A stretch of 64,000 nt of DNA from Candidatus Yanofskybacteria bacterium RIFCSPHIGHO2_12_FULL_45_19b (GCA_001794605.1 MGKD01000013.1:13463-77462), one strand, 5' to 3'. Shown: positions 1 to 43,781, counted from the stretch's first letter. Notes: generated from the sequence alone by a model not told the origin. Translations and numbers: made by a program.

Positions 1-1804
1 TGCTAGAACGACTGATTTGACGATTGATAGCAATACTTTTGATTATACTGGCTACGCTAATGGTAGTGGTTCGGAGGCAATTAGTGTGCGTTATGCTAGT
101 CATGTGGTGGTAACCAATAACATCCTGACTGGGTCGGCCAGCGCCACGACCTATGAGGCGGGTATTACATTAGCTTCGGTAAATTCTACTGGTGGTCAAA
201 GCGTAATTAGCGGAAACACGGTGGACGGTTTCAGTCGTGGTATCCGTATTCAGCGTTGGGCGTCTGGCGATGGTAATTCTGATGATATAGAGATAACCAA
301 CAACGCAGTAACCGATGGCGTTGTTCTGACGGGTAGTGAAAGTAGTACTGGTGTTGGCTTATTTCTTGCTGGTGTAACCAATCTTTTCGTGGATGAAAAT
401 ACTGTTACTGGTCATACTAATGCCGGTGTGTATATCCCAGCCACTGTTTCGGATGGCGGGGCTAACACCATCACCAATATGATAATTGGTGGTTCAACGG
501 CTAGCTTCAATGACTTTTCTAGCAATACCGACGGAATGGACAACTTCACAACCACAACTGCTAGTGCGCAATATAACTGGTGGGGAAGCTCGACTGGGCC
601 GAACCACTCGCCGGAAAATATTCCTGGAGTAGGCAGTTCTGTTTCTGATTATGTGGACTACAGCCCGTGGTGTACAAATAGTAGCTGTACAACTTTCGGT
701 TCCAGCGACCCGATAGATCATTTTGATATTGATCCGTCAGCTGGTTCGGCAATTGTCAATGTGTTGATTACCCTCACCGTAACCGCTAAAGATTCCGCGG
801 ACATTACTCGGGTTAATGATACCAGTGTAGTTTCGATGGCGGCTGACCATGGTGCATCATTGGGAACCCTACTCCTAACCTTGATAAGTGGGACCAGGGA
901 TACCACTGTGACAAATTCTGTGACGGGAACAGTTAATGTTTCTGGTATTAAAGTGGGCGGTTCAGCCACCGGCTCAACTTCTGTATCGTTTACCAGCAGT
1001 GATCCTGACGCGCCTACGATTATCAGCCACTCTCCAGCGGATGATGCAACCGATGTTGCCGTTACTACTGTGCCATACATTACCTTTTCCGAGGCACTCA
1101 AAGCCAGCACAGTTAACTCCACCAACATCCAACTAAAGAAATACAGCGACAACTCCAATGTTTCTGCCACGGTATCGTTAGTAGAAGGTGGCACCCGAGT
1201 CAACATTACGCCAGACAGCTCCTTGGCCAACAATACCCAATACTACTTTGCTGTTTCAACTAGCGTGCAGGATGAGGCCGGTAATGCTTTGGTGACCGCG
1301 CTGGATGTTGGTAGTAGAGATAGCCATGAATTCACCACTGTGGCCATTGAACCAGTGGTGGTGGACGAGATCGTGGCCGAGTCCAGCACTGCTACCGCCG
1401 ACGACACTTACATCAACGGCTGGCACTACATTTACCGCATCACTGTGAATACTGACGAAACCGATCTTTCGGTTAAGTTTACTGATTGGGATAACGCCGA
1501 CACGACGGACACCATCGCCGCCAATGGCAATATGCGAGTATTGTTCAATAGTGTTACCGCCAATGGGTTAGGTGCGGTGGTCGGTTTGACCGATTCTGAC
1601 ATTGAGGACGGTTTTGGTGATGTGGATTCATACGCAATTGGGAATGATTATACCGACCAATCTCCAAGCGTAATTGATATTTCCGGCCTGGATACTAGTA
1701 GTGTGCGTGATGGCCGGCAGGTTCAGTTTGATGTCTATACTAAACTGCCAGTAACCACTGTACCGGGTTTTTACACCACTACCTATGGTATTCAGGTTAA
1801 TTAA
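1..1804 (+). CDS. cell-surface protein, 5'-partial: parallel beta-helix-like repeats followed by Ig-like beta-sandwich domains
   Basis: Frame is open to the window edge, so the TTG at 17 is internal. N-terminal half has repeated NN..TG/GxxxxGIxI beta-helix-type repeats. C-terminal half is Thr/Ser/Val-rich Ig-like segments. Confidence 0.5.
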   Translation, partial: ARTTDLTIDSNTFDYTGYANGSGSEAISVRYASHVVVTNNILTGSASATTYEAGITLASVNSTGGQSVISGNTVDGFSRGIRIQRWASGDGNSDDIEITNNAVTDGVVLTGSESSTGVGLFLAGVTNLFVDENTVTGHTNAGVYIPATVSDGGANTITNMIIGGSTASFNDFSSNTDGMDNFTTTTASAQYNWWGSSTGPNHSPENIPGVGSSVSDYVDYSPWCTNSSCTTFGSSDPIDHFDIDPSAGSAIVNVLITLTVTAKDSADITRVNDTSVVSMAADHGASLGTLLLTLISGTRDTTVTNSVTGTVNVSGIKVGGSATGSTSVSFTSSDPDAPTIISHSPADDATDVAVTTVPYITFSEALKASTVNSTNIQLKKYSDNSNVSATVSLVEGGTRVNITPDSSLANNTQYYFAVSTSVQDEAGNALVTALDVGSRDSHEFTTVAIEPVVVDEIVAESSTATADDTYINGWHYIYRITVNTDETDLSVKFTDWDNADTTDTIAANGNMRVLFNSVTANGLGAVVGLTDSDIEDGFGDVDSYAIGNDYTDQSPSVIDISGLDTSSVRDGRQVQFDVYTKLPVTTVPGFYTTTYGIQVN

Positions 1805-1812
1805 CTTCATCC

Positions 1813-2469
1813 ATGACTAATAATAAAAAAATTAATTTCTGGGTGATCTTACTACTACTGTTGGCCTGGCCGGTTAGTGCTTCGGAGGTCACCGGTGGAC
1901 TTAGTAATCAGGGAGTAGTGCCAATCCTCCCTAGTGGAGTAGTCGCCACCAAGACTGGTGATCAACAAATCACCATCAGTTGGAATGCGGTGGTCGGCGT
2001 AGATGGTTATCGGATTTATCAAAAAAAAGACAGTGCTGATTTTCAGCTGTTGGTTGATAATCTGACCAACCTCCAGTATGTCAACTCAAGCTTAGCTAAT
2101 GGTAATTACAGTTATCGGGTGCAGTCATTTAAAGGGAGTTTAAGTCCGAGTGTAGATAATACTGCTCCTACCGCACCCATTACTATCAATTTTGTTGTTT
2201 CTACTCCGACTCCCACCCCAACACCGTCGGGTGGCGGTGGTGGAGGTGGCGGGGGGGGCGGCTCAGTATCTACACCCACTCCCACTCCCACAGGCACGCC
2301 TACATTGAATCAAGGTAATTCCAATGGGGACGGTAAAGTAGATGTGTTAGACTTCAATACCTTGGTTACTAATTGGGGAGCCACTGGTAGTGGTAATTCG
2401 GCAGACTTTAACAGTGATGGTACGGTTGATATTTTAGACTTCAACATCCTAATGAATAATTGGAGTTAA
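1813..2469 (+). CDS. secreted FN3-like domain protein with Pro/Thr-Gly11 linker and C-terminal type-I dockerin (two Ca-binding repeats)
   Basis: Signal peptide MTNNKKINFWVILLLLLAWPVSA. FN3-like ITISWNAVVGVDGYRIYQK. Dockerin repeats NGDGKVDVLDFNTLVTNW and NSDGTVDILDFNILMNNW. Confidence 0.75.
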   Translation: MTNNKKINFWVILLLLLAWPVSASEVTGGLSNQGVVPILPSGVVATKTGDQQITISWNAVVGVDGYRIYQKKDSADFQLLVDNLTNLQYVNSSLANGNYSYRVQSFKGSLSPSVDNTAPTAPITINFVVSTPTPTPTPSGGGGGGGGGGGSVSTPTPTPTGTPTLNQGNSNGDGKVDVLDFNTLVTNWGATGSGNSADFNSDGTVDILDFNILMNNWS

Positions 2470-2480
2470 TAAATCTAAAT

Positions 2481-3242
2481 ATGATGAAAAAAACTATTCT
2501 CGCAATTATTACTGTCGTTGGTTTTGGTCTATCCGCTGGGCCAGCGCTGGCCGCTACGCTTACGCTGTCGCCAACTAGTATTACCGTGAAGGCCGGGCAG
2601 TCTTTTACTGTAGCAGTTATGGTTGATCCACAAGGCGGGAAAGATTCAACTATCAAGACTGTACTGAGTTTCCCCGCTGATATGCTAAGTGTGCAGGCTT
2701 TCACGCAAAACACTGGCTGGTTGTCACTCACTCAACCTGGCTATGATCTAACAGATAATACCAATGGTAAGTTAGTTAAAACGGCTGGCTTCCCGGGTGG
2801 TATTACTAATACTACTACCTTCGGTACAGTGAACTTTTTGGCTAAAAAAAGTGGTAGTGCCAATATCCAAGTAACCGCTGAATCATTGGTTTATGACAAT
2901 ACCAATAAAAATGTTTTAGGATCGGTACTTGGCCAAACCGTGGTAACAATTAATCCGGCGGCTACTCCAACTCCGACCGTCACTAAAGCAGTTACACCAG
3001 CACCAACCAAGGTTGGTGGGCAGGTAACCGCTAGCCCGACGCCAACCGTATCGGAGGAGGCAGGCGTGTTAACCCCCACCCCCACTCCAGATACGCTAAG
3101 CGATAGTACTACGGCGCGTTTGGGTGCGGCGTTAACGCTGGGTACCAACAAGTGGCCAGTAGCAGTTTTGGTACTTGCCATTTTAGCTGGGTTGCTGGCT
3201 TGGTTAATCTGGGGCCTGCGCCGACGCAAAAACAACCTATAG
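2481..3242 (+). CDS. membrane-anchored cohesin-like domain protein (PT-rich linker, C-terminal TM helix and RRRKNN stop-transfer)
   Basis: ATG at 2481 with signal peptide MMKKTILAIITVVGFGLSAGPALA. Cohesin-like beta-sandwich pattern (ITVKAGQSFTVAVMV...LSFPADMLSV...GTVNFLAKKSGSANIQV). PTPTP linker. C-terminal hydrophobic helix followed by RRRK. Confidence 0.6.
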   Translation: MMKKTILAIITVVGFGLSAGPALAATLTLSPTSITVKAGQSFTVAVMVDPQGGKDSTIKTVLSFPADMLSVQAFTQNTGWLSLTQPGYDLTDNTNGKLVKTAGFPGGITNTTTFGTVNFLAKKSGSANIQVTAESLVYDNTNKNVLGSVLGQTVVTINPAATPTPTVTKAVTPAPTKVGGQVTASPTPTVSEEAGVLTPTPTPDTLSDSTTARLGAALTLGTNKWPVAVLVLAILAGLLAWLIWGLRRRKNNL

Positions 3243-3262
3243 TCTAAAGCAAAATAACCCAA

Positions 3263-3287
3263 AACCTTGAGGTTTAACCTCAGGGTT
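3263..3287. repeat. REP-like imperfect palindrome (degenerate copy of the RAYT-associated hairpin)
   Basis: aaccttgaggtt-t-aacctcagggtt; one mismatch in the stem. Same core as the 4694 and 5380 copies. Confidence 0.6.
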
Positions 3288-3380
3288 AGTAACCCGTCCC
3301 CCACTTTTGCCCTCCTACGCGAAGAGAATATGCTTCGGGGGGTATACAAAAAGTAGGGGACGAGTGTTATCATTTAGTTC

Positions 3381-3701
3381 ATGATTAACTATGAACAATT
3401 TAGCCAGACTGAACTACAAGTAGCAGAAGTTAAAACTGCTGAACGGGTGACTGGTTCAGACAAATTACTGAAATTAATGATTAGTTTGGGTGAGGAGGAG
3501 CGCCAGATTATCGCTGGTATCGGCAAAGCCTACGAACCAGAAAGTTTGATTGGCAAACAGATTATTATCGTTGCCAATCTGGAACCACGCCAACTGATGG
3601 GCTTAGAAAGCCAGGGCATGTTGCTAGCGGCTGACTCCGAAGCTGGTCCGGTGCTTTTGATGCCAGACAAACCAGTCTCTCCTGGTAGTAAAATTAAATG
3701 A
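3381..3701 (+). CDS. csaA: tRNA-binding protein (CsaA/Trbp111-like OB-fold, MetRS C-terminal-like)
   Basis: LQVAEVKTAERVTGSDKLLKLMISLGEEERQIIAGIGKAYEPESLIGKQIIIVANLEPRQLMG matches the tRNA-binding EMAP/CsaA domain. Confidence 0.8.
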   Translation: MINYEQFSQTELQVAEVKTAERVTGSDKLLKLMISLGEEERQIIAGIGKAYEPESLIGKQIIIVANLEPRQLMGLESQGMLLAADSEAGPVLLMPDKPVSPGSKIK

Positions 3702-4684
3702 AGCGAGTTATTTTAATTGTTCTGATTTGTCTAGCTATTGCAGCTGGAGGGTTTTTGCTCTTTACTCATCAAGACTTTTCTTTTAAGGGTGGAGAGGGAT
3801 TTTCAATTTTTTCTACCCCGACCCCGATGAACACTATCCTAATTTTTACTGGTGATATTATGCTGGGTCGGAGTGTGGAGATTAAATTAAATAAATATGG
3901 TGCTGGTGATTATTTCTTTCCCTTTGCGCGCATCAGCGAGTGGTTAAATTCGGCGGATTTAACTTTTGCTAATTTAGAGGGACCAGTCTCGGACCGGGGC
4001 ATAAAAGTGGGCAGTATCTACTCTTTTCGCTTCAATCCGTTAGTGACAAAAGCTTTAAAAAAGGCCGGTTTTGATGTGGTTTCCTTGGCCAATAACCATA
4101 TTTGGGACTATGGTCCACAGGCTTTTTTAGACACTCTGGATAATTTAAAAACTGGTGGAATTGATTATGTCGGCGCCGGTAAAAATTTCACTGAGGCGCA
4201 TGGCGGCCTAACCAAAGAAATCAACGGTACTCGGATAACTTTCTTAGCTTATACCCCGCTGTTAGCAAAAAGTTTGAATGCTACGGCTGACCATTTTGGT
4301 ATTAATGTTTTAGATTTAGACCAGATGGACTTGGATATTAAATCTGCCAAAGCGTGCAGTGATTTAGTGGTGGTGTCGTTTCATTTTGGCGAAGAGTACA
4401 AACCTAAGCATAATCAATTTCAAGAAACCGTCGCCTATCGCGCCGTTGATGCCGGAGCAGATTTAATTATCGGTCACCATCCGCACGTGGCAGAGGATTT
4501 GGAACAATACCAAGGCAAATGGATTGCCTACAGCCTGGGAAATTTTATTTTTGATCAATACTTTTCTCCCGAAACCATGCAAGGGTTGGTTTTGCGAGTA
4601 ACATTAAGTGGCAAAACTATCTCCAAAGTAGAACCACTCACTGTGCAACTAAATAGCAACTTCCAACCAGCCTTGATCGACTAA
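3698..4684 (+). CDS. CapA-family (PGA_cap) metallophosphatase-like capsule/poly-gamma-glutamate synthesis protein
   Basis: N-terminal TM. GDIMLGR motif, NNH and HHPH metal-binding motifs. Start overlaps the upstream gene by 4 nt. Confidence 0.7.
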   Translation: MKRVILIVLICLAIAAGGFLLFTHQDFSFKGGEGFSIFSTPTPMNTILIFTGDIMLGRSVEIKLNKYGAGDYFFPFARISEWLNSADLTFANLEGPVSDRGIKVGSIYSFRFNPLVTKALKKAGFDVVSLANNHIWDYGPQAFLDTLDNLKTGGIDYVGAGKNFTEAHGGLTKEINGTRITFLAYTPLLAKSLNATADHFGINVLDLDQMDLDIKSAKACSDLVVVSFHFGEEYKPKHNQFQETVAYRAVDAGADLIIGHHPHVAEDLEQYQGKWIAYSLGNFIFDQYFSPETMQGLVLRVTLSGKTISKVEPLTVQLNSNFQPALID

Positions 4685-4693
4685 AAAAAGCGC

Positions 4694-4722
4694 CCTACCT
4701 TGAGGTTTAACCTCAAGGTAGG
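4694..4722. repeat. REP hairpin (14-bp perfect stem, 1-nt loop) cctaccttgaggtt-t-aacctcaaggtagg; contains GTAG
   Basis: Read directly. The reverse complement of the left arm equals the right arm. Confidence 0.85.
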
Positions 4723-4734
4723 TATACTTCTGAT

Positions 4735-5394
4735 ATGGCTAATCGAAAAATTAGTTTTATCAACGATAACTATTATCATATTTATAACCGTGGTATTGAT
4801 AAGCGGATTATCTTTGAGAATGACCACGATTTTAAAAGATTTCAAGAAAGTCTACGGCTATTCAATTCTCCTAATAGTATCTGGCTAGCTGATGCTAACC
4901 AGAAAACTGAGGTTAAACCTCAAGACCGTCTGGTAGATATAGTGTGCTACTGTCTAATGCCCAATCATTTCCATCTTTTACTTAAGCAACGAGTTGATAG
5001 TGGTATCCCAAATTTCATGCGAAAATTGGGCACTGGGTATTCGTTATATTTTAATATGCGCAAAGAACGAAGTGGTAGTTTATTTCAAGGTACCTACAAA
5101 GCCAAGCTAGTGACAGATGATAATTACCTGACTCATCTTTCTAGATATATTCACATGAATCCGGTTGAGCTGGTAGATAGTAATTGGAAAGTGGCCGGTA
5201 TAAAAAACAAAAGAACGGCATTTGATTTTCTCGATAAGTTTCAGTGGTCAAGTTATCCTGATTTTATATCAGAAGTCAGTGGCAAGATAATTAGTAGAAG
5301 TATTTTGCATGAAATGTTTACGCCCAGTAGCTACAAGAAATTCATCGAGAGCTGGCTAATTAAAGATTTAGAGCAAATTGCCCAACTACCTTGA
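4735..5394 (+). CDS. REP-associated tyrosine transposase (IS200/IS605-like Y1 HUH transposase, RAYT)
   Basis: HUH motif MPNHFHLLL. Candidate catalytic Tyr in LFQGTYKA. C-terminal YIHMNPVELV...WSSY signature of the transposase IS200-like family. Confidence 0.75.
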   Translation: MANRKISFINDNYYHIYNRGIDKRIIFENDHDFKRFQESLRLFNSPNSIWLADANQKTEVKPQDRLVDIVCYCLMPNHFHLLLKQRVDSGIPNFMRKLGTGYSLYFNMRKERSGSLFQGTYKAKLVTDDNYLTHLSRYIHMNPVELVDSNWKVAGIKNKRTAFDFLDKFQWSSYPDFISEVSGKIISRSILHEMFTPSSYKKFIESWLIKDLEQIAQLP

Positions 5395-5418
5395 GGTTAA
5401 ACCTCAAGGTAGTTGGGC
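5380..5418. repeat. REP hairpin (19-bp perfect stem, 1-nt loop) gcccaactaccttgaggtt-a-aacctcaaggtagttgggc
   Basis: Read directly. Shares the ctaccttgaggtt core with the 4694 copy. Confidence 0.85.
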
Positions 5419-5420
5419 AG

Positions 5421-5524
5421 AATGGTTTTGGAGGTAACATTGGGCAGTGAAAACCATAACTAAGGTTGAGCCATTTACCGTGCGACTGAATGGCGATTTT
5501 CAACCAGCAGCTCTGGCCAACTAG
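5421..5524 (+). pseudogene. remnant duplicate of the CapA 3' end (frameshifted), ending ...VKTITKVEPFTVRLNGDFQPAALAN*
   Basis: Nucleotide and protein similarity to 4580-4684 (GKTISKVEPLTVQLNSNFQPALID*). One-nt indel upstream. Lies immediately after the right REP. Confidence 0.55.
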
Positions 5525-5617
5525 AGTGGCTTGTGATATACTACTTTTACCCCTGGACCAAGCTCGGTCATGGAAGGGGGTGTACGAGCAACCTTTTGAA
5601 TCATGAGGGTTAGTTAA

Positions 5618-5971
5618 ATGACGATTGGAATGGCGAGAATTGCTGTGGTTGAACTGCCGGCGAATCCAAGAAACAAGGGCACGGAGTTTATCAACAAGCC
5701 CATCAACGAGTTGACCTCGGAGGTCGTCGAACTCATGATGAGGTTGGGGTGTCGAACCCCCTTGGAGTTGGTCGATAAGGCCGTGGAGTCGAAGGTGGCT
5801 TCGTTGGCCGCGGTCAACTCTCTCAAGAGCAGTGTGGAGTCGCTCCACCCATTCAATCTTGTTGTAAGAGTTCTTCCGGAACTCCGCGAGGAGATTGAGG
5901 GCAGAGTTCTTCGTCTGCGTTCACAGCAGATCAGGGCGAGCCATGGAGCCCACCCGGTGCGGAGGGTGTAG
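5618..5971 (+). CDS. hypothetical protein, GC3-rich orphan ORF (foreign codon usage)
   Basis: 117-aa ORF with strongly G/C-ending codons, unlike the A/T-ending codons of neighbours. TGaTATACT extended -10-like box at 5534-5542. Strong terminator downstream. Confidence 0.35.
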   Translation: MTIGMARIAVVELPANPRNKGTEFINKPINELTSEVVELMMRLGCRTPLELVDKAVESKVASLAAVNSLKSSVESLHPFNLVVRVLPELREEIEGRVLRLRSQQIRASHGAHPVRRV

Positions 5972-6068
5972 ATATCCCATTCTCTCTGTTCAAAAGCATC
6001 AGCCTATCGTGCAGTTCTTTTTTATTATCTCTCGGTCTGAGAATTGGGCGGCTTAAACCCGCCTAGTC

Positions 6069-6104
6069 GACCGCCCTAGATGTAAGGGCGGTCTTTATTT
6101 TTTT
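6069..6104 (+). terminator. rho-independent terminator gaccgccct-agatgta-agggcggtc + TTTATTTTTTT
   Basis: 9-bp GC-rich stem, 7-nt loop, T-tract. Confidence 0.75.
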
Positions 6105-6133
6105 ATGGTTATTTGTTAAGTAAGGTCTTATCT

Positions 6134-6694
6134 ATGCAGGAAGATCTAGATTTAGCAAAAATCACCCTGGATGCTTTTCACTCGATTGTCTATTTATCTT
6201 TTCTCGTTAAAGACAGTGGTTTGCGTGAGCGGCTAATTGCTAGAGCGAAACCACTGCTAGATCGTCCGGGGCGATCGGAATTTGAGCGAGTTAAAATGCT
6301 AGAGCAAACCGTCGCTTGCCTCCTCGATTATTTGGAACTCCTGGTCTATCTAAAGTCTGCTCCGCTAGGGGGTTTGCTGGAGACCCAAAAACAGGTACTG
6401 AAATTAAAATTGATTATTGTTAGCAAGGAGAAGAATGCTCATCCTAAAAAAGTTTCTAAACCAGAAGAGGTTCAAATTGAAACTGAAAAAGGAAATGACC
6501 AAATTTTGGATGAAAAAATTATTGAACTAGTTAAGACCAGAGATGGTTGTAACTTTAAGGATATTTCTGGCGAGCTAGGTGGGGAGTATTCCAAACGGAC
6601 TTTGATCCGTTATATCAACAAACTATTGGCGCGCGGTTTAATCAAGAAAAAGCTGGGGCTGGATACGAGGTTTCCTAGCTATACGGTTGAGTGA
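6134..6694 (+). CDS. putative DNA-binding protein with C-terminal winged-helix HTH
   Basis: C-terminus NFKDISGELGGEYSKRTLIRYINKLLARGLIKKK is wHTH-like. N-terminus is alpha-helical. Start ambiguous between TTG 6113 and ATG 6134. Confidence 0.45.
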   Translation: MQEDLDLAKITLDAFHSIVYLSFLVKDSGLRERLIARAKPLLDRPGRSEFERVKMLEQTVACLLDYLELLVYLKSAPLGGLLETQKQVLKLKLIIVSKEKNAHPKKVSKPEEVQIETEKGNDQILDEKIIELVKTRDGCNFKDISGELGGEYSKRTLIRYINKLLARGLIKKKLGLDTRFPSYTVE

Positions 6695-6741
6695 TGGTGC
6701 CAGGCATGGTGCCAGCTAGCTGGCACCATGCCTGGCACCAT
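6694..6741. repeat. 48-bp perfect palindrome atggtgccaggcatggtgccagcta|gctggcaccatgcctggcaccat
   Basis: The reverse complement of the left half equals the right half. Begins at the stop codon of the wHTH gene. Confidence 0.9.
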
Positions 6742-6833
6742 GAAGTTGTGCTTATTTAAATAGGACATTCATGGTGCCAGCTAAATCTGTTGCTGAATCT
6801 GGCTTTACGCTTGGCACCATGCTTGGCACCATG
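6694..6833. promoter_or_regulatory. array of seven copies of the 10-mer core GGCACCATG/CATGGTGCC in both orientations (iteron/operator-like)
   Basis: Copies at 6694, 6705, 6720, 6732, 6770, 6811 and 6823. The last two are tandem ttggcaccatg. Confidence 0.5.
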
Positions 6834-7067
6834 AAGACCGTGTGGTTTTCATTTTTCTGACATAATTTTACGGTGCTATCCGTCAGCCACTGGATGGGGA
6901 AATATTGCCCCAAGAGTTTTTGTGAAAGATGAAAAAGTCTTAATTTAAGGCGGTTATCCACAATTGGCTATTGTCGGTGCGGGTGAATAAAATTATAATG
7001 GTTTTAACGGTTGTTAGTAATCCGTTTTGTTCCTTGTTGGTAAAGGATTCCTTATTTCTCTGATGGT

Positions 7068-7095
7068 TTGACAAAAGGCCTATTTTTGTTAATAT
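7068..7095 (+). promoter_or_regulatory. sigma70-like promoter TTGACA-N16-TAATAT upstream of the S-layer-like gene
   Basis: ttgaca at 7068-7073, taatat at 7090-7095. Roughly 350-nt leader before the ATG at 7444. Confidence 0.45.
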
Positions 7096-7443
7096 CACCA
7101 GAGCGTCTAAGGACTATTATCAGTTAGTAAATGCGGGCTAAAAAGGTGCGTAAAAAGCCACTATTTACGAGCTTGTAATAGGAATCTATCCGAGGCGAGC
7201 TTGGACCTTGAAAACTCAATAAAACGGTTGCTATATATTGTAAGTAAAATAAGAGGTCAAACTAAGCAATAATAATGAGCTCCATCGCTCGTTCTAAATT
7301 TTTTTGCTCGGTCGATAAAACAGAGCGAATTCCCTTTTTGAGGGTGAGGAACAAGTGAGTGGTGGTTCAATAAGTTAAACCGTTCTGGCTAGTTGGGTGG
7401 TCGCAAGACAAACCAAATTTATCCAGAACACAAATATCAATCT

Positions 7444-10400
7444 ATGAGTCAATTATCAACAAAAGGAACGAGAGCGGTTTTAATCAAAACTGCCTCAGTT
7501 CTCACAGGTGTAGCGACAATATTGTCGTTATCCGGAATCCTGGCTTTTGCCCCAGTGGCAGGTGCCGTGGCTCCGTCCAACTTCGGATTGACTGAGGGCA
7601 ACACGATCAGTGCTGCTGGCTCCGAAGATCCGGATGTCTATATCATTAATGATGCGGGCTACAAGAGATTGTTCTTGAACCCGGCAATCTTTGGCTTCTA
7701 TGGTCACCTCGGTGGCTTTGCCAACATTAAAAATGTTACCCCAGCGACTCGCGATGCCTTCGTAACTTCTGGTCTGTTCCGCAACTGCGAAACCAATGAC
7801 GAAAAAGTTTATGGCGTTGAGACTACTGGTGAGGACACCGGTATGTTGCACTGGGTAAATACTTCTGGTGCGCAGGCCGTTGCAGATGACCCAAATTTCT
7901 TCTTGAAAGTTTTCTGCATCAACAATAATGAGTTCAACTGGTATGCTAAGGGTACAAACTACACCTCAGTAAATCAGGTCCCGAACTATTCCAGAACTCC
8001 TGGTGTTACTCCAACCCCAACCCCATTGGCGGGTTCAGTGAGTGTCAGTCTAGCTCCGAACAATCCAGCCGCTTCTACTACTACGACTAACGCTCAAGGA
8101 GTGGAATACTTGCGAGTGCGTTTGAGTGGTAGTGGTACGGTTAACTCCGTAACGGTCAAGCGCACTGGCGCTGGTTCAGTAGATGACTTTGATAATATTT
8201 ACCTTTACGATGGCGCGCGTCGTCTCGTGACTGGTAAGTCATTGACTTCATCCACTGGCGAGGCAACTTTCAGCAACCTAAGCATTGCAGTGAATGGCTC
8301 TAAAGATATTTCAGTAGTAGCCGATCTTTCTGCTACCGCTGGTAATGTCAACGCCTTCAGCTTAAATGCTCTAAGTCTGACTTCTGGTTCGGTCAGTGGC
8401 CTACCAGTAGGCGGTAATAATCTTTCCGTTTCTGGTGCTACCTCCGGTACCATTACTATGACCAAGGTTGGTTCAATAGGTGATCCAAATGCAGGTCAGC
8501 AGGATGTACAGTTGTCTGAATTTAAGCTGTCGGCTAATACTGAAGCGGCTTCAGTCAGACGCATTCAGATGTTACAGGGCGGTACAGTTAATACCTCTGG
8601 TATCACTGATCTTAAATTGAAGACTGGTTCCAGTGAATGGTCAGGGACTATTGATAGCGCTGGCTATGTTGTCTTCGACCTTGGTTCCGGATTCAGTATT
8701 GTCAAGGGTGGCAATGCCGTCTTTAAGGTTTATGGTGATATTGCTGGCAAGAAAGACGAAACCATTAAGCTCTACTTTGAGTACGCTACTGACATTTTGG
8801 CAGTAGGCGATCAGTATGGCTATGGTATGGCTGTTACTAGTACTACTATGGACGCGGTAAGTGAGGCACATGCCCTTACCCTACAGGGTGGTGTATTAAC
8901 GCTTACCTCTTCTGGTTTAGTGGCATCGGATATCGGTACTGATACCGATGATACGGTCTTCCTACGTTATTCGATCGCTGCAGCCAGTAATGTTGAGATT
9001 CGTAAACATCGTTTAGTTATCAGTAGCGACAAGGGTGGTGATGGCACGTTTGACGATTTCGTCGTTGCGACCAGCACCAGTTTCGCTGATCTCGATGATA
9101 TCAAGGTAATTAATGAAGCTAACGGAGCGGTTCTAATCGGACCGGTTGATGGTAGTTCCTTTGATGAAGTTGGTACTGCAAATAACAGTGCCGGCGGCGC
9201 GGTGGAAGGGGCAATGAACACCTTTAGTGATGTCATTGATCTCTCCGCTGGCCAGACCTTGAGTCTGAAGGTTACCGCCGACGTGAAGACTGGCAACACA
9301 CGCACTGGTTCTGCACTCGTAGCTGGTTCTAAAGTAGCAATCGGTGTCCAGGATTACTCTGATAATGTTGGAGTAACCGAATTGAAATATACTGGCACCA
9401 ACACAGCTTTAGCGGCTGCGGACATTGTGCCAAATGCTAACATTCATGGTCCAACTATGACTTTGACCGCTTCCAGCTTAACTTTAAGCTTGGCCTCTAA
9501 CCCAGCCGACCAGACAGTCGTGCAAGGTAGCCAGAATGTTGATAGCGTTGGTATTATCTTCCAGGCTTCGAATGCTTCTGCCTTGAAAGTAACGAATATT
9601 ACCGTTACCGGTTACTCCGATGCGAATGGCGCCGATGCCTTCGATAAGGGCAGTGCGGGCGATATTGGTTCAATCGTGTCAGCTGTGTCGTTGGTGGAAA
9701 AAGAGAGTGGAACAGTTTTATCCTCTACTCCTTCTGCTAATAACCTGGCGGCTTCTGCCGGTACGATCGTCTTCAATAACCTAAACTGGAACATTCCAGC
9801 GGGTGCGAGTCGGACGCTTATTGTTAGAACTAATCTTCTAAACTTAACTCCGCCGACCAAGGACGAATTTGGCTTCGATATTGCGGCCACGACTGACGTG
9901 ACTGCCATCGACGATTCAAACACCACGGTTAATGCTGGTAATGCCACTCCAAACGGTGCCACCAGTATTACGACTGAAGTAGAGGTAGTCAGTGCTGGTA
10001 ATATCTTTGTTACCGAGTATTTATCCTCGCCTTCTAAAGACAAGCAGGCTATCTACTGGGGTCAGACCGGTGTAGCAGTTTCTACCTTCAATGTCCGTGC
10101 GGCGAAGGAGGGCTTCTACATTGACCGGTTCAACATAGTATCGGCTGATACAGCTGATGCCAAGAATAATGTTGCCGGCGTCTATCTGGAGTATCAGGAC
10201 AAGGCTGGTTCAACTCTTACTGCCGGTCCGTACTCCTTAAGTGGTAGTGTTGCGTCTGTGTCATTTGGTTTCAGTGGTGCAACTCGGCCATATATTCCAA
10301 AAGATCAGTCGCGTCAAGTTGTTGTGAAAATTGATACCATTGGTACTCATCTAGCTGGTGCGACCTCGGCAGTTGACTTTGCGATGAACTTCTCGGGTGG

Positions 10401-11046
10401 TGCTGCGGACGAATTCGAAGCTACCGGCGAGGGTTCATTTGCCAAGGTGCTCGGCAATGATACTACTGGTGACGATACCGATAGTGTAACTGTGTCCAAT
10501 AAGAACATGGTCTATCGTTCGTTCCCGAAGTTTACTAATATCGTCTTGGCTGATGGTGCTGCTAGTGCCAACGCAGTGGTAGGCAAGTTTACCATCACTG
10601 CTATGGGCTACGATGTGCTCTTCAATACGATTAACGTTGCTTCTGGTACGATTACCTTTGACACGGTGGCATCTGGTCAGACGGCTCCAGCCGATCCGAT
10701 GATCACACTGTATGATGATACTACTGGCCTAGTTTATTCTAGTGCTTCGTATGATATCGATACCGTTAATGCTTCTTTGAGCTTCTCGGAATTCCTGAAT
10801 GCCTTAAACATTCCGGCCGGTACCTCAAAGACATTGCGCGTCCAGGGTAACCTAACCGCCTTCAATCGCGCGACTAACACCACCAGTGGTGTGGCCGCTG
10901 ATCACTTTATGCTCGTCCTGCAGGATGAAGCTAATGTGATTAAGTGGGTTGACAGTGCGGGCGTCGATGCCAATCTTGACCAGGCTAATACGGCAGGTTA
11001 TATCAAGAACCTTCCGTTCAATGGACCGAACATGACTGGTCAGTAG
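7444..11046 (+). CDS. giant secreted cell-surface (S-layer-like) protein with multiple Ig-like/beta-sandwich repeats
   Basis: ATG at 7444 gives signal peptide MSQLSTKGTRAVLIKTASVLTGVATILSLSGILAFAPVAGA. Roughly 1200 aa, rich in T/S/G/V/A. N-terminal ~115-aa domain is paralogous to the C-terminus of the 54399-55340 protein. Confidence 0.65.
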   Translation: MSQLSTKGTRAVLIKTASVLTGVATILSLSGILAFAPVAGAVAPSNFGLTEGNTISAAGSEDPDVYIINDAGYKRLFLNPAIFGFYGHLGGFANIKNVTPATRDAFVTSGLFRNCETNDEKVYGVETTGEDTGMLHWVNTSGAQAVADDPNFFLKVFCINNNEFNWYAKGTNYTSVNQVPNYSRTPGVTPTPTPLAGSVSVSLAPNNPAASTTTTNAQGVEYLRVRLSGSGTVNSVTVKRTGAGSVDDFDNIYLYDGARRLVTGKSLTSSTGEATFSNLSIAVNGSKDISVVADLSATAGNVNAFSLNALSLTSGSVSGLPVGGNNLSVSGATSGTITMTKVGSIGDPNAGQQDVQLSEFKLSANTEAASVRRIQMLQGGTVNTSGITDLKLKTGSSEWSGTIDSAGYVVFDLGSGFSIVKGGNAVFKVYGDIAGKKDETIKLYFEYATDILAVGDQYGYGMAVTSTTMDAVSEAHALTLQGGVLTLTSSGLVASDIGTDTDDTVFLRYSIAAASNVEIRKHRLVISSDKGGDGTFDDFVVATSTSFADLDDIKVINEANGAVLIGPVDGSSFDEVGTANNSAGGAVEGAMNTFSDVIDLSAGQTLSLKVTADVKTGNTRTGSALVAGSKVAIGVQDYSDNVGVTELKYTGTNTALAAADIVPNANIHGPTMTLTASSLTLSLASNPADQTVVQGSQNVDSVGIIFQASNASALKVTNITVTGYSDANGADAFDKGSAGDIGSIVSAVSLVEKESGTVLSSTPSANNLAASAGTIVFNNLNWNIPAGASRTLIVRTNLLNLTPPTKDEFGFDIAATTDVTAIDDSNTTVNAGNATPNGATSITTEVEVVSAGNIFVTEYLSSPSKDKQAIYWGQTGVAVSTFNVRAAKEGFYIDRFNIVSADTADAKNNVAGVYLEYQDKAGSTLTAGPYSLSGSVASVSFGFSGATRPYIPKDQSRQVVVKIDTIGTHLAGATSAVDFAMNFSGGAADEFEATGEGSFAKVLGNDTTGDDTDSVTVSNKNMVYRSFPKFTNIVLADGAASANAVVGKFTITAMGYDVLFNTINVASGTITFDTVASGQTAPADPMITLYDDTTGLVYSSASYDIDTVNASLSFSEFLNALNIPAGTSKTLRVQGNLTAFNRATNTTSGVAADHFMLVLQDEANVIKWVDSAGVDANLDQANTAGYIKNLPFNGPNMTGQ

Positions 11047-30503: not shown

Positions 30504-32048
30504 TTAGACAAGGCGACGTTTCGCGCCCTCCCAACGCACATCCCCAAATTGAGGCTGGCCGTGCTGGGCCTCCCAAACTGTCTGATACTCACGAATCCGC
30601 TTAATATCACGGGCCACCATTAACTCACGCAGACCGAGCAACTCGACCGCGTTAAAGTTCTCACAGATGACGGCAGTAATCTTAGTCGCGTCTCCCAAGT
30701 CCGTCAGGAAAGCGTCCAGACTGCCATCATACTGTGCCAAGATGCGGTCTTTGTACTTGTTGAACCACTCACTGCCTGGATAAGGAGTAGCAAAGAAGGG
30801 CTTAACCTGAATACCCATCTCCTCCCATGCCTCTACGCAGTCAATCAACGAGTCAAACCAGTCATCCGGAAAGCCCATGATCTGGTTGGGGATTGGTCGG
30901 ATACCGGCTTCCATGGTTACGCGAAGTGAGCGCTTATTGGTTTCAGGCGTGGAACCTTTGCCAACGTTTTTTAATACGCGCTTGGAAAAGGATTCATAGC
31001 CATAAACCAACTGGGAACAGCCCGCCCCATGCATTAGCCGGAGAATTTCCGGATTAGCATGAGCGGCATGACTGGTGCCACCCCAGTGTACGCCATGGCA
31101 GTGTTCTGGATCATGCGGCACGCCATCGCGCACACATTGCGGCTGAAGGCCCGCCTCAATCCAGAGCCGGCAGATTTCCGGTAGCCAGGTATTATGCGTG
31201 GCCGCGTTCATTGCTAACAGATTTTCGTCAAAGAAAATAACGAAATCTGTGCCATACTTATCGCGCATATGTTTGACCATCTGCACGATATATTTAGGGC
31301 TATGCACACGGTTCTCGCGGTTGTAGGTAAAGACCACATCGGCGGCCGGGTTGTTGGGATCCTGATATTGCAGGTCTCCGGCTAGGCCAAGGTGAAAGCA
31401 AAAACGACAGATGAACGGACAGCCGAAACTGCCGTTGACATCCATACGTTTCTTGGCCGAGAAGGCCTCTTCACTGTAGATCAGTGCGGAGTTACGGAGA
31501 TAGATGTCCATCGGGAGCATATCCCAGGCGGGATAAGGCAGGACATCGAGGTTGGGAATTAAGGGGCGAGGTGGAGTAAGGCAGTTGTTTCCAGTGCGAT
31601 CTCGGTAGATTACCCCGAGCGTTTTGGAAAAATCCAAGTCGTCAAGGGCTATCTTTTCTAAAATCTCCGGAAAGGTAACAAAACCTTCACCCACTACCCC
31701 TAAGTCCACTTCTGAGATCAGTCGCATCATATCCTGCGGTATGCTGGTTAAAATACCTCCACCTAAAACTCTTAATGAGCGGGGAGAGTACTGTTTCGCA
31801 TACTGCATAATTTTTTTGGTGTAACCGTAGGTAGTGGTGATACCACCAACCCCGACTACATCCCAGTTGTCGGCTTGCATGACGGCTTTCAAGTCGCCGT
31901 CATCCGGCCGCCAGGCGTTGGCATCGAGAATTTGCACTAGATGCCCAGCCTGGTCAGCCAGAGCGGCCAACTGGGAAATGCCATAGGGGATATGACGGGG
32001 ATCATCCTCTTCCCGTACGACGGGGTTTATCAACAGTACTCTTGCCAC
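30504..32048 (-). CDS. B12-binding radical SAM enzyme (class B radical SAM methyltransferase-like)
   Basis: N-terminal cobalamin-binding fold. CPFICRFC (CxxxCxxC) motif. Confidence 0.8.
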   Translation of the reverse strand: MARVLLINPVVREEDDPRHIPYGISQLAALADQAGHLVQILDANAWRPDDGDLKAVMQADNWDVVGVGGITTTYGYTKKIMQYAKQYSPRSLRVLGGGILTSIPQDMMRLISEVDLGVVGEGFVTFPEILEKIALDDLDFSKTLGVIYRDRTGNNCLTPPRPLIPNLDVLPYPAWDMLPMDIYLRNSALIYSEEAFSAKKRMDVNGSFGCPFICRFCFHLGLAGDLQYQDPNNPAADVVFTYNRENRVHSPKYIVQMVKHMRDKYGTDFVIFFDENLLAMNAATHNTWLPEICRLWIEAGLQPQCVRDGVPHDPEHCHGVHWGGTSHAAHANPEILRLMHGAGCSQLVYGYESFSKRVLKNVGKGSTPETNKRSLRVTMEAGIRPIPNQIMGFPDDWFDSLIDCVEAWEEMGIQVKPFFATPYPGSEWFNKYKDRILAQYDGSLDAFLTDLGDATKITAVICENFNAVELLGLRELMVARDIKRIREYQTVWEAQHGQPQFGDVRWEGAKRRLV

Positions 32049-32050
32049 GA

Positions 32051-33073
32051 CTAGCCTCCGTTCTGTCCAAATTTGTTTAGAAATTCAGACAGAGAAATGA
32101 AGTTTATGTTGGCACCAAAAAGAGTGCCTCCTTCGGTGCAGTTATAAGTAGTGCACGGGGCCTGCTTGGCCAGTTCCAGGATAATCTCCCGGAACCAGTA
32201 GTAGGTTGGATCCGTGTACCAAGTCTCGTTGAGGTACGGGTTTTGAATCTCGATGTAGGCTTCGGCGACCCGTTCGCCGAATAAATCACGCAGTTCGTAA
32301 AAGTACTGCGTATTGAGGAAGGGAGTGCCGGGGGCGTATCCGAGATCAAATCCGGCTAAGGCTACCTGCCGATGTCCCAATACCGCCCAGGAAAAAATGT
32401 AGGCAGCGGTGCCGACATTGCCACCGGTGTTCATACAAGGAATACCGCCGGTTAGACCTACTAGCTCGCGGGTGACAGTTTGGGTGGGATCATCTGGGTC
32501 ATCGTAAAATTGATTCCACCAGTAGATATCCATACCCGATTCCACACAGCGTTTGGTGACGGTAGGATCAACGCTGGTGCAGAGGATGGCTTTAATTTTA
32601 GAGCCGTGCTGGTTTACTAGCTCGGTTAACTCCTGATTATAGCGCATCTCGTCTTCCCAATACTTAGGGTCAAAGTCCTGTCGCCGGAAGTAATCATCCG
32701 GTGGTCGGCTAGCCAGGTCAGGATCGCCGAACCAACGCACGATACGATACGGGTTGGGGTCTAAACAGACCATGTATTGGGGGATAACACCATGGCGCAG
32801 GCAATAACCAAAGCTGCCATCGGCGGTGATGATATCGCCAGTGAAGTTGGTTTGGGCGATGCGGGCGGCGGTATGCTTACGATGCAGGCTCGGTCCACCT
32901 ACCACTACGATGGCGGCACTGTCTGGCCCATGCTTTGGAATCAACAAGTCATCAATTGTTTTTCGGTAATGCGGACGATTCAATTTGGCATTGCGGAGGC
33001 CCACGGCGGTAACTTTGTCCGCCGTGAGCTTGCTGACGAACTGGGCGATTTGCTTACCTAGGTTATTCTCCAT
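32051..33073 (-). CDS. DUF115/MptE-like protein, Maf-like putative nonulosonic-acid glycosyltransferase
   Basis: VVVGGPSL, ITADGSF, PQYMVCLDP and GGNVGTAAYIFSWAVLGHRQVALAGFDLGY motifs typical of DUF115/Maf. Confidence 0.6.
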   Translation of the reverse strand: MENNLGKQIAQFVSKLTADKVTAVGLRNAKLNRPHYRKTIDDLLIPKHGPDSAAIVVVGGPSLHRKHTAARIAQTNFTGDIITADGSFGYCLRHGVIPQYMVCLDPNPYRIVRWFGDPDLASRPPDDYFRRQDFDPKYWEDEMRYNQELTELVNQHGSKIKAILCTSVDPTVTKRCVESGMDIYWWNQFYDDPDDPTQTVTRELVGLTGGIPCMNTGGNVGTAAYIFSWAVLGHRQVALAGFDLGYAPGTPFLNTQYFYELRDLFGERVAEAYIEIQNPYLNETWYTDPTYYWFREIILELAKQAPCTTYNCTEGGTLFGANINFISLSEFLNKFGQNGG

Positions 33074-41586: not shown

Positions 41587-42630
41587 ATGAAAAAGAATCC
41601 TAGTATTAAGATTGGACAGAGAAGAGTTGGTTTAGACTTTCCGCCACTAGTAATAGCGGAGGTTGGTATAAACCATGAAGGTGATTTGCGCAAGGCAAAA
41701 CAAATGGTGGATGACGCTCAGGCGAGTGGGGCAGAGTGTGTTAAGTTTCAATCTCATATTATTGAAGATGAGATGGTGCCAGCGGCACAGGGAACAGTTC
41801 CTGGTAATGCACAAAAATCCATTTGGGATATTGTAAAACGTTGTGAACTAAGTGCAGAAGAGGAGTTAGAACTCAAAAAATATGTAGAGGCTAAGGGCTT
41901 AATTTACTTATGCACTCCTTTTTCGCGGGCTGCGGCAGATCGTTTAAAAAAAATGAAAGTGTCAGCTTATAAAATTGGTTCTGGTGAGTGTAATAACTAT
42001 CCACTGATTGAACATATCGCCGCTTTTGGCAAGCCGATGATTGTTAGTACTGGGATGAATGATATTCCGGCGATTAAAAAAACAGTACAAATCCTACGCG
42101 CCAAGCGAGTGCCTTATGCCTTACTGCACTGCACTTCAATTTACCCTACTCCTTACGAAAAGATTCGTTTGGGAGCGCTAGCTGATTTACAGAGAACTTT
42201 TCCGGATGCTGTGGTGGGTTTAAGTGATCACTCTCTTGGTAACTATACCTGCTTTGCCGCCACAGCATTGGGAGCTTCAATTTTGGAAAAACATTTTACT
42301 TCGAAAAAAAGTTGGCCGGGGCCGGACATTCTAATCTCCATTGATCCACCAGAGTTGGCTGATTTAATGGTTGGAACACGAGCAATTTTTTCTGCTCGTG
42401 GTGGTAAAAAGGTTATTCTACCAGAAGAAAAACCCACCATCAATTTTGCTTATGCCTGCGTGGTGGCAACCAAAGATATTGCGGCAGGTGAAAAAATAAC
42501 TATGGAAAATGTTTGGGTTAAACGTCCCGGTACGGGAGAGATTAAAGCCAAGGATCTTTCCAAAGTTTTAGCGAGAGTGGCTAAGGTGGATATTAAAAAA
42601 GATCAACAGTTATCATGGAAGATTATCTAA
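41587..42630 (+). CDS. NeuB/LegI/PseI-family nonulosonic acid synthase (N-acylneuraminate synthase-like)
   Basis: LVIAEVGINHEGDLRKAKQMVDDAQASGAECVKFQSH. C-terminal SAF domain. Confidence 0.85.
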   Translation: MKKNPSIKIGQRRVGLDFPPLVIAEVGINHEGDLRKAKQMVDDAQASGAECVKFQSHIIEDEMVPAAQGTVPGNAQKSIWDIVKRCELSAEEELELKKYVEAKGLIYLCTPFSRAAADRLKKMKVSAYKIGSGECNNYPLIEHIAAFGKPMIVSTGMNDIPAIKKTVQILRAKRVPYALLHCTSIYPTPYEKIRLGALADLQRTFPDAVVGLSDHSLGNYTCFAATALGASILEKHFTSKKSWPGPDILISIDPPELADLMVGTRAIFSARGGKKVILPEEKPTINFAYACVVATKDIAAGEKITMENVWVKRPGTGEIKAKDLSKVLARVAKVDIKKDQQLSWKII

Positions 42631-43781
42631 AAAAGGGTAGAAAGCGGGTGGTATTTTTAACTGGTACACGGGCTGACTTCGGTAAGCTTAAATCGCTTAT
42701 CTTAGCGTTGCGTAAAGCCCTGGGATTTGATGTGCAGATTTTTGCTACCGGCATGCACATGTTGGCAGATTACGGCTATACCGTAAACGAGATTGAAAAG
42801 TGCGGGATCCGTAATATTTATAAGTATATTAGCTATTCCGGCCAAGCTTCTCAAGAAGTTATTTTGGCAAGTACCATGGTTGGTTTTGGTAATTATATTA
42901 AAGAATTTAAACCCGATTTAATCATAGTACATGGAGACCGATTGGAGGCTTTAGCGGGTGCTTTGGCTGGTAGTTTTAATAATGTTCTGGTCGCGCATAT
43001 TGAAGGTGGTGAGCTTTCTGGCACGCTAGATGGGCATATTCGTCACGCTATCACTAAGTTATCTAATATTCATTTTGTAGCTAATGGTGAAGCTAAAACC
43101 AGAGTAAAACAATTGGGCGAGGATCCCAAAAGTATTTTCGAAATCGGTTCGCCAGATGTCGATGTGATGTTATCAAAAAAATTACCCACCTTAACTCAGG
43201 CCAAGAAGCGCTATGCTATAAATTATGATCACTATGCTATTTTGCTCTATCATCCAGTTACTACCGAACTAGGTTCTTTGGAACGAGACGTGGAAGAATT
43301 AATTAGGGCCATGGTAAAGTCGGAAATGAATTATATAGTAATCCACCCCAACAATGACCCAGGGTCGGATATTATTCGTACCCATTATTATGGTCAATTA
43401 GCTGCCAATTCTCATTTTCGCCTTTTTCCTTCTCTGCGCTTCGAATACTTTCTTACTATATTGCGACACGCTCATTTTATTATTGGTAATTCTAGTTCTG
43501 CAGTAAGGGAGGCTCCTTATTTTGGTGTCCCTGCACTCAATGTTGGTACGCGTCAAGCAGATAGGATATTTGGGGTAGAAAGTGTCTCCAATCATAATCA
43601 TCAAGAAGCCGGAATTTTGGCAGCGATTAAAAGATTTTCTACAAAGAAAAAGCGCTTTCAAGTCAGAAAGGCTTTTGGGCGAGGCAATAGTGATAAGAAT
43701 TTTGTAAAAGTTTTAGAACAGAAGAACATTTGGCAAAATGGTATACAGAAAAAGTTTAATGATATCAATAAAATTATTTAA
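42615..43781 (+). CDS. UDP-N-acetylglucosamine 2-epimerase, NeuC/LegG-like (hydrolysing type)
   Basis: VVFLTGTRADFGKL, HIEGGE, GNSSS. Confidence 0.75.
   Translation: MEDYLKKGRKRVVFLTGTRADFGKLKSLILALRKALGFDVQIFATGMHMLADYGYTVNEIEKCGIRNIYKYISYSGQASQEVILASTMVGFGNYIKEFKPDLIIVHGDRLEALAGALAGSFNNVLVAHIEGGELSGTLDGHIRHAITKLSNIHFVANGEAKTRVKQLGEDPKSIFEIGSPDVDVMLSKKLPTLTQAKKRYAINYDHYAILLYHPVTTELGSLERDVEELIRAMVKSEMNYIVIHPNNDPGSDIIRTHYYGQLAANSHFRLFPSLRFEYFLTILRHAHFIIGNSSSAVREAPYFGVPALNVGTRQADRIFGVESVSNHNHQEAGILAAIKRFSTKKKRFQVRKAFGRGNSDKNFVKVLEQKNIWQNGIQKKFNDINKII

Follow-up and report, generated by a model that had tools for sequence, protein, structure and literature searches.

Lineage-specific orphan genes of the Candidate Phyla Radiation (CPR) are short open reading frames (ORFs) that lack recognizable domains, are confined to one narrow lineage and are annotated as uncharacterized, and atypical GC content at third codon positions (GC3) is commonly taken as a sign of recent transfer. 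A second point of reference is provided by replacement-type allelic islands, such as capsule and pherotype loci, to which we return at the end. Here we describe a small gene at positions 5618-5971 of a 64,000-nt stretch of Candidatus Yanofskybacteria bacterium RIFCSPHIGHO2_12_FULL_45_19b (referred to throughout as the window; GC 43.8%), which shares all of the above traits of CPR orphans, but differs from them in its demonstrated coding status, in the presence of its own conserved promoter, 5' hairpin and 3' untranslated region (UTR) element, in a GC3 excess that persists and in the coexistence of deeply divergent alleles. We read the ORF as neither an RNA gene nor a transposase passenger, but as a predicted independently transcribed small gene. 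Taken as a whole, the statement that this is a real gene, that its allele has been replaced and that its product may bind nucleic acid has, in our estimate, a probability of roughly 0.55.

Coding status and the predicted transcription unit

The ORF carries the marks of a protein-coding sequence, namely an open and conserved frame, three-base periodicity of GC content (0.58, 0.40 and 0.69 at codon positions 1, 2 and 3; chi2 = 21.3, p = 2.4e-5) and an excess of synonymous change. Across three alleles, designated A (the window), B and C, the proportion of differing nonsynonymous sites (pN) is 0.26-0.34 and that of synonymous sites (pS) a saturated 0.57-0.67, with a ratio of nonsynonymous to synonymous rates (dN/dS) of 0.26-0.30; the frame is intact in all of them, indels comprise whole codons, and a GAGG Shine-Dalgarno sequence and the start codon are retained. 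Given the periodicity, a dN/dS near 0.3, the whole-codon indels and the preserved initiation signals, we consider it very probable that 5618-5971 is a protein-coding gene under purifying selection, in agreement with the 'small gene' of an initial reading made from the sequence alone (hereafter the sequence-only reading). A 162-aa antisense ORF at 5360-5848 (minus strand) was rejected, as it is closed in alleles B and C and has no Pfam match.

The same reading had offered a structured noncoding RNA as an alternative, in which case the ORF within a GC-rich RNA gene would be incidental. The transcript does fold better than dinucleotide shuffles in the three alleles (z = -3.8, -3.4 and -4.1), and the coding sequence (CDS) is more stable than synonymous-codon shuffles (z = -2.3, -2.4 and -2.8). 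Much of the whole-transcript score, however, is supplied by three UTR hairpins, and among 12 control genes from the window (mean z -0.9, sd 1.1) two score as low as -2.6 and -3.2. An RNAalifold consensus over the three alleles yields a covariation term of +1.04, which amounts to no support, with many pairs broken, and both the three-base periodicity and the dN/dS value would be unexpected for an RNA gene. Covariance-model searches with cmscan returned no Rfam match at E <= 1 for the ORF region; over 4000-8000 at the same threshold the only matches, through spurious miRNA models, fall on a palindrome at 6692-6743, over the whole window at gathering thresholds there were none, and ARAGORN found no tRNA or tmRNA genes. 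With no net covariation either, an RNA gene appears extremely improbable. Likewise set aside were tmRNA, RNase P and a T-arm-like GGGGTGTCGAACCCC, all considered by eye and unsupported by any tool; a box C (AUGAUGA)/box D (CUGA) pair, also without tool support, whose AUGAUGA encodes an invariant Met-Met; and conserved mRNA structure within the CDS, for which covariation is absent and the excess stability lies inside the control-gene range. The palindrome at 6692-6743 is itself near-perfect, is built from GGTGCCAGGCATGGTGCCAGC and has a degenerate second copy at 6773-6838.

The best explanation for 5514-6104 as a whole is a single, self-contained predicted transcription unit, in which promoter, 5' stem-loop, Shine-Dalgarno sequence, 117-codon CDS, a 130-nt 3'UTR with its core and hairpin, and an intrinsic terminator would follow one another. 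Its parts are listed below, with L014 denoting the corresponding contig of a species-level relative:

5514-5542, plus strand: promoter-like site, with -35-like TGGCCA at 5514-5519, a 17-nt spacer and extended -10 TGaTATACT at 5534-5542 (in the window, TGATATACT); 9/12 matches with TG in the promoter scan
5550-5579, plus strand: 5'UTR stem-loop, CCCCU-GGACC / loop / GGUC-AUGGA-AGGGG, just 3' of the expected transcription start
5605-5609, plus strand: Shine-Dalgarno sequence GAGGG, 8 nt 5' of the ATG, read directly
5618-5971, plus strand: CDS of the 117-aa protein (allele A), based on ORF call, periodicity, dN/dS and a helical model
6018-6023, plus strand: T-run within the variable 3'UTR portion, at a position shared by the three alleles; no convincing stem lies before it
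6033-6053, plus strand: 3'UTR core CGGTCTGAGAATTGGGCGGCT, 21 nt, identical between the window and L014 despite saturated synonymous sites
6043-6067, plus strand: 3'UTR hairpin 1, AUUGGGCGG / loop CUUAAAC / CCGCCUAGU, from the minimum free energy fold
6069-6104, plus strand: intrinsic terminator, a 9-bp stem at 6069-6093 (GACCGCCCU / AGGGCGGUC) with 7 G-C pairs, then a T-run to 6104

Both signals named by the sequence-only reading, the extended -10-like box and the GC-stem terminator, are thus present, the former with a -35-like element 17 nt upstream. The promoter TTGTGATATAnTAC is kept in L014, where the -35 element is better (TTCACA). All nine pairs of the 5' stem-loop are invariant across four lineages, among which no compensatory changes were seen, and the loop is variable (AAGCTC, TGAGTACC, TGAATACC). 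The roughly 60 nt between the stop codon and the 3' core are poorly conserved or scrambled and end in the T-run. Downstream of the core, L014 forms a counterpart of hairpin 1 from other letters (GGGCGGC / UCCCCG / GCCGCCC), and its terminator occupies the same place, again with a different sequence (GGUCCCGCC / GGCGGGACC and a U-run). Also in L014, CCGGTCTGAGA is tandemly duplicated ahead of the core.

The conserved core and hairpins at the 3' end of the predicted unit may weakly point to a role at the RNA level, be it in stabilizing or processing the mRNA or as the source of a 3'UTR-derived small RNA. In the latter case, core, hairpin 1 and terminator would make up a second product, a small RNA of ~70 nt, released or separately transcribed, with single-stranded CGGUCUGAGA as its seed. 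The core is unchanged between species whose synonymous sites are saturated while the preceding 60 nt are scrambled, both 3' hairpins are maintained in L014 through different sequences, and a T-run precedes the core in all alleles; yet this is a single species-level comparison, and the core might just as well serve mRNA processing or stability, or simply anchor recombination. We therefore regard a small RNA, which is compatible with the ORF also coding, as rather unlikely. The core was also considered and rejected as a dispersed repeat or att-like site, given that 18- and 19-mer scans of genome, metagenome and viral collections returned its own locus and chance hits in unrelated coding genes.

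Distribution and probable allele exchange at the locus

The gene family is very small and lineage-restricted. The exact 117-aa protein is already deposited as a hypothetical or uncharacterized protein (OGN19523.1, KKS12600.1, UniProt A0A1F8G2F0), the holders being Candidatus Yanofskybacteria and one bin labelled Daviesbacteria, and the Rifle aquifer and comparable groundwater are the source of every contig with the ORF. When 1.84 billion representatives were searched exhaustively with HMMER, the matches were a near-identical protein, a pair of true relatives at 61% and 47% identity and, weakly, one eukaryotic sequence; a profile search of 5.8 billion proteins returned the same three clusters and added nothing. 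IMG/VR, GenBank phages and PLSDB plasmids yielded no relative, and neither IMG/VR nor the JGI metagenomes gave a confirmed locus in protein-guided scans, the metagenome negative being weak because the scan missed known carrier contigs. One further contig, L013 (protein P0002; 630 nt, 1.2x coverage), was dismissed as an independent third genomic context: its nt 241-630 are 100% identical to allele B, and nt 1-240 hold an ArsR-like gene followed by a NifS/IscS-like start region (MIYLDYNATTPID…) that runs in frame into allele B at a junction in CCATCGACAAACC (13 nt). Either the assembly or the reads produced a chimera here, or the contig reflects a rare rearrangement or real fusion.

In groundwater Candidatus Yanofskybacteria all three alleles share one location, the CapA–Y1 transposase–ORF locus, and L014 matches the gene order of the window (tRNA-binding protein, CapA, Y1 transposase, ORF). 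Amino acid identity between the two is 88% for the tRNA-binding protein, 83% for CapA, 84% for the Y1 transposase and 78% for a large downstream protein, but 48% for the ORF, which by this measure is the fastest-evolving gene at the locus.

Comparison of alleles A and B delimits the divergent segment:

5581-6029, plus strand: allele-swap tract, running from the remainder of the 5'UTR through the CDS into the proximal 3'UTR; 63% identity between allele A (window) and allele B (contigs L028-L035)

Allele B, whose 115-aa protein P0130 was found in the 90%-identity cluster of the 61% relative, occupies the same locus in the eight contigs. The two proteins are 61% identical and the DNA is ~37% divergent over the tract, whereas the flanks are ~99.9-100% identical between allele A and allele B genomes. 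Alignment of the window with L028 gives 18 differences across 1201-5580 (14 of these within 2809-2843), 167 differing columns in 5581-6029 and none in 6030-6088, and identity with L030 likewise resumes 3' of the tract. Farther downstream, 6701-6800 fails to align with L030 (0-6% identity in a per-50-nt profile) and appears to be a strain-variable element. Samples ERZ27254767 and ERZ909588 each hold both alleles, which thus coexist in the same aquifer samples on near-identical backgrounds.

These sharp boundaries argue for replacement of the allele by homologous recombination, which we consider probable. The divergent tract begins just after the 5' hairpin and ends just before the 3' core, which would place crossovers on the left in the promoter or the conserved 5' hairpin and on the right in the core of the 3'UTR; L011 combines allele A with an L014-type hairpin loop, and breakpoints therefore also occur inside the 5' hairpin. 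The tract edges at 5564-5582 and 6033-6051 share a loose motif (CGGTC-ATG-GAA-GGGGG vs. CGGTC-TGAGAATT-GGGCGG), but a direct-repeat relation between the two boundary motifs was rejected as not significant (p ~0.09 in the window). Dense-substitution tracts between otherwise identical strains are also found elsewhere, with 14 differences over 35 nt at 2809-2843, 25 over 70 nt at 6372-6441, where they fall partly on every third base, and a further instance at 1084-1112; they resemble short segments imported by recombination from diverged relatives.

Whether selection maintains the two alleles is a separate matter. Under balancing or frequency-dependent selection the protein would act as a specificity determinant, either immunity- or antitoxin-like or a repressor with allele-specific targets, and in keeping with this the 61%-identical alleles share samples on near-identical backgrounds, the ORF evolves fastest at the locus, and divergence between alleles is greatest in its first 24 residues and in the stretch ahead of the invariant centre described below. 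At the same time dN/dS is ~0.3, with positive selection unseen at this resolution, the adjacent genes include no partner such as a toxin, PADLOC gives no match and other short divergent imports lie nearby, so that we view such selection as doubtful.

Two known sources of variable or paired small genes were rejected. The variable region of a diversity-generating retroelement is short and 3'-located, changes at template adenines and has a template repeat and a reverse transcriptase nearby; here the entire CDS and both UTRs are affected, indels are among the differences and dN/dS is ~0.3, and the window, which was not searched for reverse transcriptase, contains no repeat of the tract. A type II toxin-antitoxin system consists of two small cotranscribed genes, whereas here a single gene lies between a promoter and a terminator of its own, and the downstream gene differs between the window and L014.

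Third-position composition and the neighbouring transposase

The GC3 contrast with the neighbouring genes noted at the outset is borne out: at 0.69 the ORF lies above all 52 ORFs of at least 200 aa in the window (0.33-0.59), and 5551-6000 forms a local GC peak of 0.54-0.56. The description 'almost exclusively G/C-ending' fits only the centre of the ORF (5663-5842, GC3 0.80-0.87), given that 82 of 118 codons end in G or C over its full length. The suggested codon-usage comparison agrees, the synonymous codon choice of the ORF being more atypical than that of all 76 control chunks of 117 codons drawn from window genes (mean log-likelihood -1.38 vs. -1.12 +/- 0.07).

The sequence-only reading had proposed, as one possibility, horizontal acquisition together with the adjacent RAYT (REP-associated tyrosine transposase) cassette, where REP denotes a repetitive extragenic palindrome. 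The Y1 transposase gene at 4735-5394 (PF01797) is 100% identical between allele-A and allele-B strains and syntenic and 84% identical in L014; among strains of the same population (loci L003, L004 and L006), it is split by a frameshift into ORFs of 88 and 145 aa in some and called as 221 rather than 219 aa in others. A REP-like palindrome, GAGGTTWAACCTC, occurs in four copies in the window, with none expected by chance:

4694-4722, 5378-5420, 3264-3281 and 4907-4923: REP-like GAGGTTWAACCTC copies

The two long hairpins (4694-4722 and 5378-5420) bracket the transposase gene, and the resulting ~730 bp look like a minimal IS200-like or RAYT unit, with the ORF outside. Of the other copies, 4907-4923 lies inside the Y1 CDS and 3264-3281 follows a surface-protein gene at 2460-3242.

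Recent joint arrival with this cassette from a GC-richer donor would fit a codon usage foreign to the window, the position of the ORF directly 3' of the transposase in three lineages, the lack of both genes after CapA in two more distant relatives (CapA 55% identical) and a 3' remnant of CapA at 5423-5523, which marks a rearranged junction. It is nevertheless improbable. The Y1 gene has a GC3 of 0.34, the lowest in the window, against 0.69 for the ORF; the swapped tract comes without the transposase and its REP hairpins; the L014 orthologue retains a GC3 of 0.63 at a dS of ~1.5, i.e., at saturation; transposase and ORF are syntenic between species, so neither moved recently; and neither a donor nor another copy was found among the 5.8 billion proteins, the viral, phage and plasmid collections searched being likewise free of copies. 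Nor does the ORF look like cargo of an IS200/IS605 or RAYT/REP element, as it lies outside the hairpins and has no second copy in the window or the collections. Transposase and ORF may still have arrived jointly long ago, since neither is present in the two more distant relatives.

GC3 is 0.69, 0.63 and 0.63 in the three alleles, and the neighbouring genes in L014 have 0.38-0.55. Since all alleles are GC3-rich though dS is saturated, and a one-off scar would decay, we take the high GC3 and atypical codons to be a maintained family trait rather than the mark of a recent transfer. Selection on mRNA folding as its cause is only suggestive (CDS z = -2.3 to -2.8 vs. -0.9 +/- 1.1 in controls). GC-biased gene conversion (Lassalle et al. 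2015, PMC4450053) has in common with this locus a recombining gene with raised GC3, but is not favoured because the noncoding parts of the tract are not GC-rich; moreover, the import at 6372-6441 lies in a gene of ordinary composition. No GC-richer donor pool for repeated import was found in the collections searched. Translational selection was set aside, as high GC3 elsewhere in the window is found in genes for accessory enzymes (radical SAM/B12, MptE-like) rather than in highly expressed ones, the comparison being limited to non-ribosomal genes. The next-highest GC3 (0.58-0.59) belongs to two adjacent genes at 30504-33073 (minus strand), for a B12-binding radical SAM enzyme and an MptE-like protein, near a sugar-modification cluster with NeuB (41587-42630), UDP-GlcNAc 2-epimerase (42615-43781) and methyl- and glycosyltransferases; the pair may be a separately acquired island. 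Persistent high GC3 at the ORF points to some other upkeep, be it through mRNA-level selection, through biased gene conversion or from a gene pool not yet sampled, and cautions against reading GC3 anomalies as recent transfer.

The surroundings bear further traces of rearrangement. The CapA remnant, which ends in KVEPFTVRLNGDFQPAALAN and a stop codon, is 72% identical to the resident CapA end (4587-4671) and lies between the right transposase hairpin and the ORF promoter; it is shortened in L002 and L011 and absent in L014, and a database CapA variant, P0005, has yet another C-terminus. These variants suggest that the CapA 3' end is a rearrangement hot spot. Downstream, a gene at 6113-6694 (186-193 aa), with a weak winged-helix match at its C-terminus, starts ~30 nt after the ORF terminator, and a promoter of its own is not obvious; in L014 (7680-9561) its orthologue is separated from the ORF by an inserted trypsin/PDZ protease gene. 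The large protein beyond it (7393-11046, 1217 aa), with a high content of Thr, Ser, Ala and Gly, a hydrophobic segment at the N-terminus and no Pfam match, is probably a large surface protein.

The predicted protein and comparison with known systems

Sequence searches of the genuine alleles against Pfam, PHROGs, NCBIfam, PADLOC and PDB gave nothing meaningful. An AlphaFold (AF2) model from a five-sequence alignment (predicted local distance difference test score, pLDDT, 70.4; predicted template-modelling score, pTM, 0.60) shows five helices and a disordered N-terminus, with residues 30-60 and 80-100 modelled best, whereas a single-sequence model was unusable (pLDDT 43); a fold-library search with the protein model returned no identifying match. 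With net charges of +4 to +7 among the alleles, the protein is predicted to be soluble, all-helical and mildly basic, without a recognizable domain.

The alleles share an invariant centre, I-x-[KR]-P-x3-L-x6-LMM[KR][FL]GCRT-x2-EL[VI]-x-[KR]AVESK, which by eye reads, if weakly, like a helix-turn-helix (HTH) or ribbon-helix-helix (RHH) recognition unit. On this ground we offer a tentative guess, less likely right than wrong, that the protein is a small nucleic-acid-binding regulator or adaptor. Its size and mild positive charge fit small RHH/HTH regulators such as CopG, Arc and MetJ, and the succession of a hydrophobic helix and G-x-R-T-x-x-E-L-[VI]-x-[KR]-A resembles, by eye, their helix A–turn–helix B junction. 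It differs from them in that no allele matches an RHH or HTH profile at E <= 10, the model has no N-terminal β-strand and no fold match was obtained. An RHH protein needs such a strand before its two helices.

A second likeness of this centre leads to hnRNP_Q_AcD (PF18360), the N-terminal helical domain of hnRNP Q/SYNCRIP, by way of a repeat protein from the dinoflagellate Polarella glacialis that matches PF18360 at E = 9e-12. ORF residues 20-62 align with the Polarella repeat unit over a common motif, P-I-N-E...MM-x-LGC...EL (phmmer E = 1e-10 summed over 5 repeats), and hhalign of the ORF family against the repeat (P0004) gives probabilities of 70-88% over ~40 columns (87.7% over 39 columns). 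The link is nonetheless transitive, short and below the usual level for homology; the ORF lacks the NPSGYL part of the repeat, and none of its alleles matches the PF18360 Pfam profile. A very improbable extension of this likeness would have the locus be an exchangeable gene cassette of an undescribed kind, in which the 5' hairpin ending CGGTCATGGAAGGGGG and the 3' core CGGTCTGAGAATTGGGCGG serve both as recombination anchors and as binding sites of the protein, the latter being an RNA-binding autoregulator distantly related to an hnRNP-Q AcD/NURR-like helical unit, and the GC3-rich folded CDS is selected within this RNA–protein circuit.

Several points weigh against our combined statement of a real gene, a replaced allele and a nucleic-acid-binding product. 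The structural model shows no RHH-type β-strand, though a monomer model may miss it; the tracts at 2809-2843 and 6372-6441 suggest that divergent imports are common in the population, so that the swap alone is no proof of selection on the ORF; and only three independent alleles are at hand, with the conservation of the UTR elements resting on one species-level comparison.

The result is a modest one, a compositional oddity turned verified small gene, of relevance to CPR genomes. As the protein family has no homologue of known function, any biochemical result on it will be new, and a 449-nt, 37%-divergent tract amid near-identical flanks in one aquifer population makes for a clean natural case of recombination and selection in uncultured bacteria. 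In this the locus is most readily set beside the replacement-type allelic islands of capsule and pherotype loci, with which it shares sharp edges between ~100% and ~63% identity and the coexistence of alleles in one population, and from which it differs in being a single-gene tract that appears to be anchored by its own UTR elements rather than by flanking genes.
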